Of a stretch of 64,000 bases of DNA, positions 3 through 63,522 are shown piece after piece. The DNA lies in IMG/VR virus record IMGVR_UViG_3300033153_015023, positions 16,026 to 80,025 of that record; one strand, written 5' to 3'. The stretch is from a virus. Numbering within the stretch: the stretch's first letter is position 1; each line of letters starts with the position of its first letter. Position numbers and translations under genes: made by a program. A model generated the notes under the pieces. The model had not been told where the DNA came from, searched no databases, and was given only the letters and a program-made list of their open reading frames with translations.

Positions 3-662
3 TCACAACTTTTAGAGTTAGAACAGGATATGGGTAAAAATGAAGTTTCTCTTAGAGGAATATCTGATAAGGTAGTAGAACTAAAATTAATAGAAAAACA
101 GATAGATGAATTAGATATAGAGTTGTCAAAAAAAGAAGATGAGCTTAAAACAACAACAGAACAGGTTTCTACTTTAGAATTATTACAGAGGCTATTTGGA
201 AAGACAGGTGTATCTTTTTATATTGTCAAGAAAGTAGTGAAGTCTTTCTTAGAAAAGAACTGTAATCAAATATTAGAAAAGCTTTCTCCATATAGAGTAG
301 AGTTTAATTTAAAAACTTCTACAGATAAAAATACTTTGGATATTCTTATTCGTAGAAATGATGGTATGCGGAAGTATGAAACCTTTTCTGGTGGTGAAAA
401 AGAATTATTGAATTTTGCAATTAGAATGTCATTAAGTCAGCTATTAAAGAAAAGAGGGACTGGTGCAGCAATTAAGTTTGTGGTACTTGACGAAATCTTT
501 GGTTATCTTGATAATTACAATAAGGGTGTTTTAGAGAATGTATTAATGATGTTACGAAAAGAGTTTAGTCAACTTTTTGTTATATCGCATATTCCACTTG
601 ATTTATCTTTTGATCAAACAGTTACTATTAAAAAAGTTGGCTCATATAGTATTATAGAATAG
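3..662 (+). CDS. SbcC/Rad50-like ABC ATPase, C-terminal part (5' truncated by window edge)
   Basis: Signature FSGGEK, Walker B VVLDE, D-loop GYLD and ISH switch; frame is open from base 3. Confidence 0.9.
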   Translation, partial: SQLLELEQDMGKNEVSLRGISDKVVELKLIEKQIDELDIELSKKEDELKTTTEQVSTLELLQRLFGKTGVSFYIVKKVVKSFLEKNCNQILEKLSPYRVEFNLKTSTDKNTLDILIRRNDGMRKYETFSGGEKELLNFAIRMSLSQLLKKRGTGAAIKFVVLDEIFGYLDNYNKGVLENVLMMLRKEFSQLFVISHIPLDLSFDQTVTIKKVGSYSIIE

Positions 663-2611: not shown

Positions 2612-3425
2612 TATTTGTGTAATAGATGCAAAAAACTTTGTCTATAGAATGGATTGGGCTTATAGAGTTCTCAAAGATTCTAAAGATAGATCTACCAGTG
2701 TTTTGTATGGAACCATAAAAGGTCTTTTAAACTTAAAAAAATATTATCCTATAAAACGATTTATGTTTTTATGGGATTCCTTTAACAGTTGGCGTGTTAA
2801 TATCTATCCGGAATATAAAGCAGGTAGAAAAAAAGACTATCAGAATACGTTTACTGATCAAATAGATATTCTAAGAAAAGATATACTTCCATATATTGGT
2901 ATAGATCAATTAGAGGCGAATGGTTATGAAGCTGATGACTTAGCTGCATGGATAGTAAAAAATTGTTGTGGTGATATATTATTAGTTTCTAATGATCATG
3001 ATTGGAAACAACTTTTATGGAATGATTACATTTGGTTATTTGTACCTATTAAAAAAACTGTTCTAGGTAAACATTTAGTTTTAAAAGAAGAGGGTTTGAC
3101 GCCACAACAGCTTCCTTATTATTGGAGTATAATTGGTGATACTTCAGATAATATAAAAGGTATTTATAGATTCCCAAAAAAAGAAGCTAAGTTATTAGTT
3201 TTAAAAACAGATTGTTTTATTAACTTTTCGCCTATTCAATCTAAATGGGAAAAGGTGCTAATAGAAAATATTGATATTGTAGAACGCAATTTAAAATTAA
3301 TTCAATTGAATGGTAAAATAACTAATATTGCATGGACTAGATCTCTTAAAGATAAAAAGGTTTTTCAAGAAATTTGTAATGAATATGGTATTGTATCCCT
3401 GGTTGTAAAATTTGGGTTTTTATAA
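2604..3425 (+). CDS. 5'-3' exonuclease / flap endonuclease (PIN fold with H3TH)
   Basis: IDAKN, YPEYKAGR, YEADD, SNDHDWKQL, IIGDTSDNIKG. Confidence 0.92.
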   Translation: MYDICVIDAKNFVYRMDWAYRVLKDSKDRSTSVLYGTIKGLLNLKKYYPIKRFMFLWDSFNSWRVNIYPEYKAGRKKDYQNTFTDQIDILRKDILPYIGIDQLEANGYEADDLAAWIVKNCCGDILLVSNDHDWKQLLWNDYIWLFVPIKKTVLGKHLVLKEEGLTPQQLPYYWSIIGDTSDNIKGIYRFPKKEAKLLVLKTDCFINFSPIQSKWEKVLIENIDIVERNLKLIQLNGKITNIAWTRSLKDKKVFQEICNEYGIVSLVVKFGFL

Positions 3426-57513: not shown

Positions 57514-57556
57514 AAAAAAAGAAGAGGCTGCTTTTACACAGCCTCTTCTTGTATTT
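57514..57556. terminator. Terminator between convergent gene blocks, probably bidirectional
   Basis: AAGAAGAGGCTG / CAGCCTCTTCTT stem with an A tract on the left. Confidence 0.88.
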
Positions 57557-57558
57557 AT

Positions 57559-58089
57559 TTATTTTACTACTTGTGGTGCAATTACTGCTGTTACATATTT
57601 ACATTCAAACAAAACTGCTACTTTATCAGGATCACCATAATATACTCTCCATTTATATCCTGTAAGATCAGAAAGATAGGATAGGTTCAGCCTGATATTA
57701 GTTTCCTTAATAAAATCAAATACTTTATTGCTGAATTTACCTATTTCTTTTTTCTTAAGGGAAGCACAGGTAAGATCGAGATCAAAACTTTTGCAATTCT
57801 CTTTTTCAGGGATTACAATTTTCCAGTCTGGAAAGCCTGTTGCTTCTGTTGATGGACTAAGAATAATATCTTTTGTATTTGCAAGTACAATTGTATAATT
57901 TTCAGGGCCCAAATCAGAAAAACCTGGGAAGATATGTAATCGTTTCCCATCAGTACATATCGCTTTTTGATCTTCTATATGAAGAATCTTTAAATGAGAT
58001 CGATACTCCTCTTTAGATGCACGTGCTTTAAGCACGAATGTTAATGGTAAAAAATTACCATTGTCTTTATTGATAACTATTGTATCCAT
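57559..58089 (-). CDS. Truncated DNA polymerase III beta-clamp-like protein A
   Basis: ICTDGKRLH, FPDWKIVIP, LN.SYL.D, AVIAP. Confidence 0.6.
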   Translation of the reverse strand: MDTIVINKDNGNFLPLTFVLKARASKEEYRSHLKILHIEDQKAICTDGKRLHIFPGFSDLGPENYTIVLANTKDIILSPSTEATGFPDWKIVIPEKENCKSFDLDLTCASLKKKEIGKFSNKVFDFIKETNIRLNLSYLSDLTGYKWRVYYGDPDKVAVLFECKYVTAVIAPQVVK

Positions 58090-58330
58090 AGATACCCCCT
58101 ATAAAATATTTTTTATCCGAAAACACTATCCTGACATTCCTGGCAAAGGCCAGAGATCTCATATTCTCTTATAGAAATAGCATCTTTAAAACCAGTAATT
58201 TCCTTTTTGCAGAAAACACATATCTTTGCTTTTTCTGCTTTTGCCTGAGTTGTGTCAAAATTCTTTTTAGTAAAATTATCCAGAAATTCTTGTATCGGTT
58301 TTGATCTTTTCATATATACCCCCTTCTTTC

Positions 58331-58390
58331 AGATCTCATCAGTGCAATTAACAATTGCAGACCAGGGCAAGTATACCCTGGTTTCGATCT
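58331..58390 (-). ncRNA. Type II hammerhead ribozyme
   Basis: AGAUC-GAAA-CCAGGG(loop)CCCUGG-UC-UGCAAUU(loop)AAUUGCA-CUGAUGA-GAUCU: full core and three perfect stems. Confidence 0.93.
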
Positions 58391-58582
58391 TTACCTCACA
58401 AGTTCATATAAAGATTTTTTATCTTCTGTAAAAACATTTAGCATAACAAATTCAGATTCTTCACACAAAGCTTCTGCATAGTTTTGTGCTGCTAAATCAT
58501 CTTTAGCTTCAAATTTTAGATTCCAAGATTTTCTACTTTTAGGACTTTTAAGAAAATATAGCGTGTAAGTCATTTTATACTC

Positions 58583-59200: not shown

Positions 59201-59215
59201 CCCTTCCCCCTATTA

Positions 59216-59245
59216 ATAATACTATAGTTTTAACTAGTTTCTTTA
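59216..59245 (-). promoter_or_regulatory. Promoter-like motif, copy 5
   Basis: Minus strand TAAAGA-AACTAGTTAAAACTATA-G-TATTAT, then RBS and ATG. Confidence 0.75.
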
Positions 59246-60649: not shown

Positions 60650-60664
60650 CCCTTCCCCCTATTA

Positions 60665-60694
60665 ATAATACTATAGTTTTAACTATTTTCTTTA
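60665..60694 (-). promoter_or_regulatory. Promoter-like motif, copy 6
   Basis: Near-identical to copy 5 over about 50 bp including the RBS. Confidence 0.75.
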
Positions 60695-61109
60695 TTATAA
60701 TTAATCTTTTATTTTACCATATTCCATTTTATATTTTTCATTGCAACAAATTTGTGGATAAACAGAATTGATAATATAAAACATGGCAGGTTGTTTAATT
60801 TTGTTAAGCCATTTTTCAGCTTTTTCCATTGAAGTAGTAGTTCTAAGTCTATGTTCTTGTACCATGTTTTTTTCTTTATTATATTTTACTATTACTAGTC
60901 CTATTTTCATTTTTTCTCCTTATAAGTTTTTCGTGATAATCTTGGTACTGCCAGATTTATCATTAAACCAAAACATTAATATATCCCCTTCTTGAGTAAA
61001 GCTCTCTTCAAATGTTTTGTTTTCACAAGGAAATCTACTGCCGTGTTTTTTGATAACTTCATCTATCATAGTTTGTTTGATCTCTTCCAATCTTCAATCC
61101 CCCTATAAT

Positions 61110-61170
61110 TTATTAAGCTTAAAAGCTTTACCTGGGAGCGATCTTATATCGCTCCACAATAAAACCGTTA
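61110..61170 (-). repeat. Intergenic hairpin element, subfamily 1, copy a
   Basis: TAA-CGG-TTTTATTG-[stem-loop]-GGTAAAGCTTTTAAGC-TTAATAAA. Confidence 0.75.
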
Positions 61171-61338
61171 AATAAAGTCTGCGTTTTCTAGAGCTTCCTC
61201 AACAGTAGCTATAACGCTTATACCATTATCAAAATTATCCCGATAATGAAAATCTGGTAAATCATCTGATGTTAAACCATATCGTCTTTGTAACTCTAGA
61301 TCTACTGCCATTCTAAAACTCTCAAATAATGTAATCAT
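61168..61338 (-). CDS. 56-aa acidic protein, paralog B
   Basis: MITLFESF...GLTSDDLPDFHYRDNFDNGISV. Confidence 0.7.
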   Translation of the reverse strand: MITLFESFRMAVDLELQRRYGLTSDDLPDFHYRDNFDNGISVIATVEEALENADFI

Positions 61339-61354
61339 TTTAGTCTCCTAATAT

Positions 61355-61415
61355 TTTATTAAAGCTTAAAAGCTTTACTCGACGCCTAGTTGCCTAGGCG
61401 CCAATAAAACTGTTA
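61355..61415 (-). repeat. Intergenic hairpin element, subfamily 1, copy b
   Basis: TAA-CAG-TTTTATTG-[stem-loop]-GAGTAAAGCTTTTAAGC-TTTAATAAA. Confidence 0.75.
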
Positions 61416-61706
61416 AACTTTCGGCTTGAATTCCACATGTTCTGCAACAATTATAATTCCGCCATGCTCTTGTTCTAGTCGACCGACCACCCGTACTCCT
61501 CGGCCCTCATCAAGGTGTTCAAAACAAGTTGTGGCCAATTGGCCATAGACAGCAATATCAAAATCACTGGTTTCAGTTTCGATCTCTTCTACTTTCTTGC
61601 AATACCTTTTTGACTCGATTATAAAATTAAGCCTATCCTTAGATGTTAAACCAGTAGAAATACTTTTAACGGTTCCCTCCATTAGGACTGAATTTAAATC
61701 GTTCAT
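61413..61706 (-). CDS. ssb: Single-stranded DNA-binding protein lacking the acidic C-terminal tail
   Basis: MNDLNSVLMEG, F.I.S.R, FDI.VYG.LA, GRGVRVVGRL.Q, IVAEHVEFKP. Confidence 0.88.
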   Translation of the reverse strand: MNDLNSVLMEGTVKSISTGLTSKDRLNFIIESKRYCKKVEEIETETSDFDIAVYGQLATTCFEHLDEGRGVRVVGRLEQEHGGIIIVAEHVEFKPKV

Positions 61707-61721
61707 TTTATCCCCCTATTA

Positions 61722-61786
61722 ATTTATTTAAGCCTAAAGGCTTTATTCGGCAGTCAATATAAGATTGGCTGCCAATAAAACCATTA
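61722..61786 (-). repeat. Intergenic hairpin element, subfamily 1, copy c
   Basis: TAA-TGG-TTTTATTG-[stem-loop]-GAATAAAGCCTTTAGGC-TTAAATAAA. Confidence 0.75.
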
Positions 61787-62155
61787 AAGTTTTTCTTTTG
61801 CCGTCTCTAATTTTTCAACAGCTTTCTTTTCCTTTTCTATCCTTGCTTGGATAAAATCTGATATTTCATCCAACCAGCCTGTTGCTACATCATGGGCAAA
61901 ATTTAGGCAGGCGATACGGTCCGGCTTTTCATCCATCTGAAAATCTTGATACCCCCCAGGAGAACAAAGCGTTTTTCGATATGTCAACTGATAATTCCTG
62001 GGCAGATCGAGTAATTCTATTGGATATGCCGGTACCTCGATTTGATCACAAATGATGTCTGCAACCTCCCTCACTGCCTCTCGCAGTTTCTCTGTGCATC
62101 GGCTATTTTCCGATCCAACCCGTTCTAACCGTTTCAAACTATTAATTAAACTCAT
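61784..62155 (-). CDS. Hypothetical early protein
   Basis: 123-aa ORF with RBS, flanked by hairpin elements. Confidence 0.65.
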   Translation of the reverse strand: MSLINSLKRLERVGSENSRCTEKLREAVREVADIICDQIEVPAYPIELLDLPRNYQLTYRKTLCSPGGYQDFQMDEKPDRIACLNFAHDVATGWLDEISDFIQARIEKEKKAVEKLETAKEKL

Positions 62156-62189
62156 ACAAACCCTCCAGCGTTTTTAGCCCGCCAGCTAT

Positions 62190-62252
62190 TTTTCTCAGGC
62201 TAACAGCCCGCCAAACAGCTCCGGTCGGGGAGCCGTCCAGTAGGATGTTAGA
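62190..62252 (-). repeat. Intergenic hairpin element, subfamily 2, copy a
   Basis: ATCTAACATCCTACTGGACGGCTCC-loop-GGAGCTGTTTGGCGGGCTGTTAGCCTGAGAAAAA. Confidence 0.8.
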
Positions 62253-62471
62253 TGATCTGATATTCTCTTTTCCTCCAATAAAATAATTCCAAGGGCAGCT
62301 TTTCGGCATATCCCTGGAGCGTTTTTTTACATTCGCAAATTGCTATTTGTTGCCATTTCCATGTATGTAATACAGGACAGGCCATGCGGCTGTGATCTTT
62401 TTTATTGTCAATAATTTTATCAACCTTAATTTCTAAAATTAAATGTTTTCTCATTTATTCCCCCTTGATAT

Positions 62472-62530
62472 TTTTCACTAGCCTAACAGGCCCACCAGAC
62501 GGCACTGGTTAAAATGCCGTCCAATTGCTG
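62472..62530 (-). repeat. Intergenic hairpin element, subfamily 2, copy b (diverged)
   Basis: TTGGACGGCA-loop-TGCCGTCTGGTGGGCCTGTTAGGC. Confidence 0.7.
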
Positions 62531-63011
62531 TAAAATAATTTCGTATGGTTTCATTTTTGTACCCCCCGTATCATCAATTCATAGTGATAATCAAAGTTAA
62601 AAATTAAACCTTGTCGGTGAACATCGTCAAGTTCTGCTTTTGAGAGCAGAAAGAATTTTGATGGATTGTAACCAGTACCTTCTTTGATTTTGTGATAGCC
62701 GATACTGCAAGGTAGTTTTTCGATGTACGTCATATTTTTTCCTTTAAAAGATATTAGGATTTAGCATAGGCAATAATACGAAGAGCATCTGCAAATATTA
62801 CTGCAAAACGATCATAGATTTTGCCATTATATTTTTCAGTAATTGAATATACTGAACAGTGGATTTTGTCTACTAACGGCATGATGTCGATATGAGGATC
62901 AATTTCCTTAGAGATTTTCTCACAGATTTCTTGAAACGTAATTAAGTATGGTTTTGATACGCAAGTCATTTTATTTACTCCTATGATTTATTTATTTCCT
63001 TTACAGGATAT

Positions 63012-63054
63012 AACCTGCCCCCGGAATCGAACCGGGGGAAGAACCGTTCAGGTT
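63012..63054 (-). ncRNA. Minimal tRNA-like element (acceptor-like stem + T arm)
   Basis: AACCUG-AACGGUUCUU-CCCCCGG-UUCGAUU-CCGGGGG-CAGGUU. Confidence 0.65.
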
Positions 63055-63459
63055 GTTAAAGCGATGGTACTACAATAGATTCCACTATAACTTTTCTGCA
63101 TCTTTCTAAATAACATTCCCATAATTCTTCTTTGCCAAGATCGCTATAGATACCATTTCCCAAATAGGTCAGTGTACGATTGGCAACTTTTTTTTGATTT
63201 GCTGTCAAATCTTTTTCGTAAATCTTTCTCATTCCGTCCCCCTTATTAATCTGCATTTTTAGATTCTTTCGATCCAACGTACAACATCTTTATTGCTCAA
63301 ATCCCGATGGTCAATAATTGTTTTACTGTCAACTATTTCGTTTAATTTGGCAACAACCGCATTAAGCCGATTCTGGCATTTTTCCATCCCCGGCTGATCC
63401 CTCCAGCCATGCAAACCGCATCATTTGTCTTTGTCATTTTCTCTCCCCCTCTATAATAT

Positions 63460-63522
63460 TTTTCTCAGGCTAACAGCCCGCCAAACGGCTCCGGTTGAGG
63501 AGCCGTCCAGTAGGATGTTAGA
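63460..63522 (-). repeat. Intergenic hairpin element, subfamily 2, copy c
   Basis: Near-identical to 62190-62252; differs in the loop and by one G-U to G-C change. Confidence 0.8.

Follow-up and report, generated by a model that had tools for sequence, protein, structure and literature searches.

Three intergenic spacers in the early operon of a tailed phage carry copies of a conserved RNA hairpin that pairs the stop codon of one gene into its lower helix and ends before the Shine-Dalgarno sequence (SD) of the next. The hairpin belongs to the transcript strand, combines nearly invariant arms with an upper stem that covaries, and recurs in distantly related phages. It is an uncatalogued RNA family of a known kind, the phage intercistronic hairpins. 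Judging from its anatomy, we propose that the element is an intercistronic RNA processing or 3'-end-protecting hairpin and probably a substrate of the host RNase III, a reading in which both cleavage and enzyme are inferred and to which we give about an even chance.

The window, a stretch of 64,000 nucleotides, comprises bases 16026-80025 of a single contig of 80,025 bp (IMG/VR record IMGVR_UViG_3300033153_015023). The contig has a G+C content of 36% and a terminal overlap of 115 bp; the IMG/VR entry lists direct terminal repeats and rates its completeness at 100%. Encoded on it are DNA polymerase I, a DnaB-like helicase, ribonucleotide reductase, terminase, portal and tape-measure proteins, and this gene content identifies a tailed phage. 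Almost all genes are carried by the plus strand, the exception being one minus-strand block of small ORFs, which runs from near genome position 360, over the contig ends, to window position 57559. A sigma-70-like promoter was read upstream of this block, and its end is marked by the only terminator that the scan called on the minus strand:

57519-57550, minus strand: canonical intrinsic terminator at the end of the block

Most proteins of the block have no known family. Family matches were obtained for an SSB-like OB-fold protein, for two DUF5419-like proteins and for PHROG 2319; the homologues of the SSB-like protein are generic only, at about 50% identity. The hairpin copies are located in an early operon of about 7 kb, which also holds other structured spacers.

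The earlier note had described three copies with conserved flanks, and this was confirmed. A pattern built from both conserved flanks matched three times, where 0.13 matches were expected, and none of 100 shuffles reached three. No further copies were found in the 80,025-bp genome, also when it was searched with the covariance model described below. Each copy occupies an intergenic gap of 74-77 nt on the minus strand, from a stop codon to the SD of the next gene, with the following parts:

61170-61091, minus strand: copy 1, whole element (gap 61167-61091)
61118-61172, minus strand: copy 1, long hairpin of 22 pairs (model score 67.5 bits)
61170-61168, minus strand: copy 1, UAA stop codon of ORF 61168-61338, inside the lower helix
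61155-61135, minus strand: copy 1, inner stem-loop
61115-61128, minus strand: copy 1, alternative 5-bp mini-hairpin (P3), overlapping the 3' strand of the lower helix
61091-61114, minus strand: copy 1, A/U-rich single-stranded leader with the SD of the next gene
61415-61339, minus strand: copy 2, whole element (gap 61412-61339)
61365-61417, minus strand: copy 2, long hairpin of 24 pairs (model score 77.7 bits)
61415-61413, minus strand: copy 2, stop codon of the SSB-like ORF 61413-61706
61402-61381, minus strand: copy 2, inner stem-loop
61362-61375, minus strand: copy 2, equivalent of the mini-hairpin (P3)
61339-61361, minus strand: copy 2, equivalent A/U-rich leader with SD
61786-61707, minus strand: copy 3, whole element (gap 61783-61707)
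61733-61788, minus strand: copy 3, long hairpin of 23 pairs with one C·A mismatch (model score 78 bits)
61786-61784, minus strand: copy 3, stop codon of ORF 61784-62155
61773-61749, minus strand: copy 3, inner stem-loop
61730-61743, minus strand: copy 3, equivalent of the mini-hairpin (P3)
61707-61729, minus strand: copy 3, equivalent A/U-rich leader with SD

The flanks are near-identical among the window copies and the inner stems are unrelated in sequence. That the inner stems all pair despite these differences, as had been claimed, holds except for the C·A mismatch in copy 3. On the sense strand, the minimum free energy (MFE) structure is a single long hairpin in all three copies, with z-scores against shuffles of -2.9, -4.8 and -2.2 for copies 1, 2 and 3. 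Its lower helix joins the UAA stop and the U-rich 5' flank to the 3' flank, with the variable stem enclosed between these arms. The lower ~13 pairs, which include the stop codon and two fixed U·G wobbles, are invariant; the upper ~9 pairs covary freely. When ten full-length copies were folded, nine gave a helix of 21-26 pairs, irregular and with a bulge or small internal loop near the middle. The copy in a complete related phage (G002) differs by G-to-U at a base that is invariant elsewhere, and its fold is less complete. Almost every conserved base is engaged in a Watson-Crick or wobble pair; the apical loops vary between copies and lack a conserved pseudoknot partner.

It had also been suggested that a second AAUAAA offers an alternative partner, making two folds possible. 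The resulting Y-shaped structure, an outer helix with the downstream AAUAAA plus the 5-bp mini-hairpin, is less stable than the MFE fold by 3.4, 8.1 and 1.6 kcal/mol in copies 1, 2 and 3. The AAUAAA is present in the window copies but missing in several relatives, and since the relatives L014, L017, L023 and L020 and one copy of L018 lack the outer-helix partner, a Y-shaped three-way junction was discarded as a general fold. The mini-hairpin as such can form in every copy. Its reported covariation comes down to a single U-A to C-G change, common to copy 3 and L015, whose downstream SSB-like genes are weakly similar (27% identity); the double change is probably one event. Moreover, it fits the long hairpin equally well (G·U to G-C, U-A to U·G). 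Being neutral for the long hairpin, it does not discriminate between the folds. Masking of the first 12 nt after the stop codon, to mimic a ribosome at termination, left the upper stem and the mini-hairpin in place.

The sequence of the lower helix is more invariant than a generic double-stranded RNA substrate needs, a hint that it may be read by a sequence-specific factor or adopt a second conformation. The element could accordingly be imagined as the binding site of a sequence-specific phage or host protein, or as a translation-sensing RNA with two states, in which a ribosome terminating on the UAA would melt the lower helix, the freed 3' arm would fold into the mini-hairpin and the RNA would thereby report translation of the upstream gene. 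In the lower helix about 25 bases do not vary, U·G wobbles included, the flanking proteins differ completely, and the UAA of the element always lies within the helix. The mini-hairpin does form once the 5' strand is masked, and in copy 3 the alternative fold is only the 1.6 kcal/mol above the MFE. However, no candidate protein was identified, and a switch would have no obvious output, as the SD is unpaired in every predicted fold. The larger energy gaps in copies 1 and 2, the ambiguity of the single covariation and the lack of conservation of the AAUAAA-based switch beyond this phage also speak against two states, and we consider a protein site or a two-state RNA unlikely.

Relatives of the element were collected from metagenomes and from phage genomes. 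A scan of metagenome contigs yielded 37 loci, of which 10 were true homologues with different inner stems. A covariance model built on 8 sequences retrieved all true homologues, with scores of 62-83 bits, and revealed a second copy in L018. With a ParB-like protein as anchor, three relatives were found in IMG/VR, one of which (G002) has a copy detected by the model; SSB-like and 431-aa protein anchors gave no relatives in IMG/VR. Exact-pattern scans of IMG/VR and of GTDB genomes returned chance or coding matches only. In total, 12 distinct copies are at hand, three from the window, eight from metagenome contigs and one from the complete 58-kb phage G002. Proteins shared with these contigs are 27-64% identical, which makes them distant relatives.

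Applied to the model-based alignment, RNAalifold independently arrives at one hairpin with 23 pairs. Compensatory changes occur in 7 of these, and all 7 pairs changed on both sides fall in the upper stem. Standard pairs fill 96% of the cells, a share that falls to 37-56% once the 3' partners are displaced by 1-3 columns. The alignment amounts to about five independent inner-stem lineages, which is below what pair-by-pair significance needs; the observed covariation was reached by 0-1 of 500 column shuffles. The lower helix hardly varies, and one of its pairs goes through G·U, A-U and G-C.

The G-U pairs had been noted to fall on the sense strand. In the alignment, columns 10-50 form U·G in 11 of 11 copies and columns 15-45 in 10 of 11, and the model scores 62-83 bits on the sense strand against 19-38 bits on the antisense strand. 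Since U·G would be C·A on the other strand and the antisense score is low, the structure belongs to the transcript strand. A function at the RNA level, as the earlier note had argued, is therefore supported by the strand-specific wobbles, by the covariation of the upper stem and by the fixed position between stop codon and ribosome-binding site.

This position was analyzed further with respect to the neighbouring genes. Of 13 readable instances, 9 have the element's UAA as the stop codon that ends the upstream ORF. The remaining four are L015, L018, L019 and the G002 copy (L082, G002:C1:15840-15930); there the working stop codon lies 2, 2, 10 and 10 codons upstream, respectively, and in frame, giving tandem in-frame stops. 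Four in-frame stops out of four have a chance probability of about 1%. Upstream stops in frame are what small C-terminal truncations of ORFs that formerly extended to the element would be expected to leave, so the ancestral arrangement was apparently a stop codon within the helix. The element comes after the last gene of a unit in L014, L017 and L023, where a strong canonical terminator is found about 10 nt further on. Its occurrence before terminators in three relatives ties its function to the end of the upstream gene and not to the start of the next.

Two of the related loci contain matches to the int-alpA RNA (RF02996) above the gathering score, L023 at 3265-3331 (minus strand, 38.9 bits) and L033 at 330-394 (minus strand, 36.4 bits). 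The RNA lies in the 5' leader of a 196-aa gene whose 3' end has the element and the terminator. These units are compact, consisting of promoter, leader RNA, gene, hairpin and terminator.

The juxtaposition with terminators also bears on whether the element is a partial terminator or attenuator that would grade expression along the operon. Its hairpin is closed by a G-C pair and followed by UUUU in most copies. The terminator scan, which asks for a G+C-rich stem with a U-rich tract (at least 5 of 8) directly after it, does call the site at 57550-57519, but none of the elements. At its base the stem is rich in A/U and contains wobbles, the U's number only three in copy 3 and L015, and in the three relatives the strong terminator about 10 nt downstream would not be needed if the element itself ended transcription. 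Attenuation is hence a highly improbable role.

The motif had not been recognised when it was first described, and it matches no catalogued RNA. A scan against Rfam 15 gave no matches at the gathering score, and with E values up to 10 allowed only chance matches appeared (STnc490, E 1.6; mir-753, E 0.46). No promoter-like site overlaps the elements, when a sigma-70 promoter or a promoter-stem-loop cassette of the T4 type is sought as -35 and -10 hexamers with 16-18 nt spacing beside a stem-loop; the number of promoter-like sites in the region equals the shuffled expectation. Between the elements and a guide-like repeat array of the genome there are no meaningful 9-mers in common. A literal search for the motif words in papers returned unrelated primers only. 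An integron attC site was considered and rejected: RYYYAAC fits some copies only, none has the partner GTTRRRY, and no integrase is present.

Could the primary role lie in the DNA? The element might serve as a conserved linker that fosters homologous recombination and the shuffling of cassettes among phages, similar to the boundary sequences or promoter-stem-loop cassettes of T4-type phages, and the RNA fold would then be incidental. Between phages the element is 89-94% identical, whereas the flanking 200 nt do not exceed the level of unrelated sequence (about 73% under this scoring). Identical inner hairpins are found in different contexts (L014 versus L015, and L018 versus L019), and the G002 copy is chimeric: its inner hairpin is that of copy 2 and its 3' leader that of copy 1, the product expected if copies had recombined. 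Recombination alone, however, leaves the compensatory changes of the upper stem, the wobbles on one strand and the fixed register of the stop codon unexplained. The inner stems are unrelated even among the copies of one genome, and no match to the tyrosine integrase family PF00589 was found in the genome. A primary role as a DNA linker appears unlikely. We regard the invariant arms of the element as joints of cassette exchange or deletion in related phages, a by-product of repeated conserved sequence that would not be a selected function.

A further structure of the operon, 2.7 kb away from the hairpins, likewise fills a slot between a stop codon and an SD:

58331-58390, minus strand: complete type II hammerhead, read by eye, between ORFs 58391-58573 and 58113-58313

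It shows both core words, CUGAUGA and GAAA, together with the triplet GUC, three stems and a G-C pair at 10.1-11.1. In the Rfam scan it appears as a mis-permuted Hammerhead_3 match of 25.3 bits, below the gathering score; no type II hit is listed there, overlapping matches of the same clan being reduced to the best one. The sharing of an operon with a hammerhead, together with the strong conservation of sequence, would suit a new class of self-cleaving ribozyme that uses hammerhead slots, and new ribozyme classes were reportedly discovered by Weinberg and co-workers in 2015 through such association. The element itself is not a hammerhead variant, whose three-way junction would carry CUGAUGA, GAAA and a UH triplet for cleavage: the two core words are absent from the three copies and no hammerhead match falls on them. 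As for a new class, the conserved bases are almost all in regular pairs, the apical loops are not conserved and lack a conserved pseudoknot partner, and even with E values up to 10 no ribozyme of Rfam is matched. We therefore rate a new ribozyme class as a most improbable reading. Very unlikely, too, is that the element is an active RNA in the wider sense, that is, either a new small self-cleaving class or a translation-sensing switch that would couple cutting of the mRNA to translation of the upstream gene.

Other spacers of the operon and of the related contigs are structured or repeated as well. A second hairpin family (subfamily 2) occupies window positions 62156-62247, 62455-62550 and 63415-63517 on the minus strand. 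It repeats the layout of the stop-codon hairpin, with a stop codon, a covarying hairpin of about 12 bp, a small conserved hairpin whose loop resembles UGUUA, a run rich in A and, last, an SD; it has no Rfam match and recurs in L026 (oriented 1071-1147), adjoining a copy of the stop-codon hairpin. At 62970-63055 (minus strand) an intergenic hairpin resembles a tRNA T-arm, with a 7-bp stem and a 7-nt loop (GGUUCGAUUCC), and has another small hairpin after it. A weak match to RAGATH-36 (E 2.3) was obtained for this spacer, which may be a tRNA-like processing signal. A near-identical unstructured leader is present at two junctions, 59201-59229 and 60650-60700 (minus strand). This leader repeat (D5) is 90% identical over 69 nt, and its SD-proximal words also occur downstream of copy 3, which suggests gene conversion or a translational leader shared among junctions. 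L018, a contig with two element copies, contains a hammerhead-like type I sequence at oriented positions 828-915 (CUGACGA, GAAA, GUA). It has U·U at 10.1-11.1 and no Rfam match and was not counted as evidence; it may be a decayed or variant ribozyme.

Processing or 3'-end protection by a hairpin is the reading that we prefer. The element would act in cis as an RNA punctuation hairpin in the polycistronic early transcript of the phage. The 5' arm (UAA, three bases and a U-rich run) pairs with the 3' arm and closes the variable upper stem, and a double-strand-specific endonuclease, most likely the host RNase III, would cut in or near the defect in the middle of the helix. Alternatively, a single-strand nuclease could cut in the A/U-rich leader just downstream of the helix. 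The upstream cistron would keep the hairpin at its 3' end as a barrier to exonucleases, and the downstream cistron would be freed with an unpaired SD. The outcome would parallel what the hammerhead of the same operon would achieve by self-cleavage.

Two properties expected of an RNase III-type site can be compared with the element. Such a site has a helix of at least about 20 pairs, and the element has 21-26 in nine of ten copies and 23 in the consensus. It also lies between cistrons of an early polycistronic transcript, as do the elements of the window, three relatives placing theirs before a terminator. No RNase III gene of the phage's own was found in the genome. The earlier note had put forward an RNase III site, a protein-binding switch or a self-cleaving RNA. 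The regular helix, 21-26 pairs long and bulged in its middle, favours an RNase III-type or stability hairpin. Since the element directly precedes a terminator in L014, L017 and L023, separation of cistrons cannot be its sole role; 3'-end protection still fits there.

Early phage operons punctuated by ribozymes have been known since 2011, and the non-ribozyme spacers in those slots are uncatalogued. The element provides a clean example, with invariant arms, a covarying upper stem and a stop codon in the helix, kept across phages with unrelated neighbour genes. If cleavage is true, transcript segmentation by ribozymes and by nucleases would be linked within one operon, and the element would amount to a compact and portable insulator between genes.

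Several known systems share features with the element. Integron attC sites likewise bound gene cassettes and enclose a variable, structured centre between conserved ends, and their 5' end often contains a stop codon; the element differs from them in having no GTTRRRY core partner, in the absence of a tyrosine integrase from the phage and in a strand asymmetry that follows transcription. REP sequences of E. coli, as in malE-malF, and the Correia elements of Neisseria, which are cut by RNase III, belong to the stabilising hairpins between cistrons and the repeated palindromes that are read as RNA. They resemble the element as repeated hairpins just past stop codons that shape the fate of the mRNA and mark points of rearrangement, but they conserve the whole copy, whereas the element conserves its arms only and its interior covaries.

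The RNase III sites of T7 (R0.3-R1.3) and of SP82 are repeated hairpins between early genes in one long transcript, with conserved sequence among copies; in T7 the hairpin remains on the upstream message as a 3' stabiliser. The likeness lies in the repetition of early-gene hairpins, in a length of about two helical turns, in the mid-helix defect and in the sequence shared between copies. There is, however, no sequence similarity, cleavage is only inferred for the element, its helix includes the stop codon and it also precedes terminators. According to its title, a study by Panganiban and Whiteley (1983), cited in PMC4838370, deals with B. subtilis RNase III cleavage sites in the early mRNA of phage SP82. 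Clustered hammerheads that flank prophage genes and cut polycistronic phage RNA were described by Perreault et al. (2011; PMC3088659). The element resembles these in using the slot between stop codon and SD in the same type of operon, but it has no CUGAUGA/GAAA core and forms a simple helix instead of a three-way junction.
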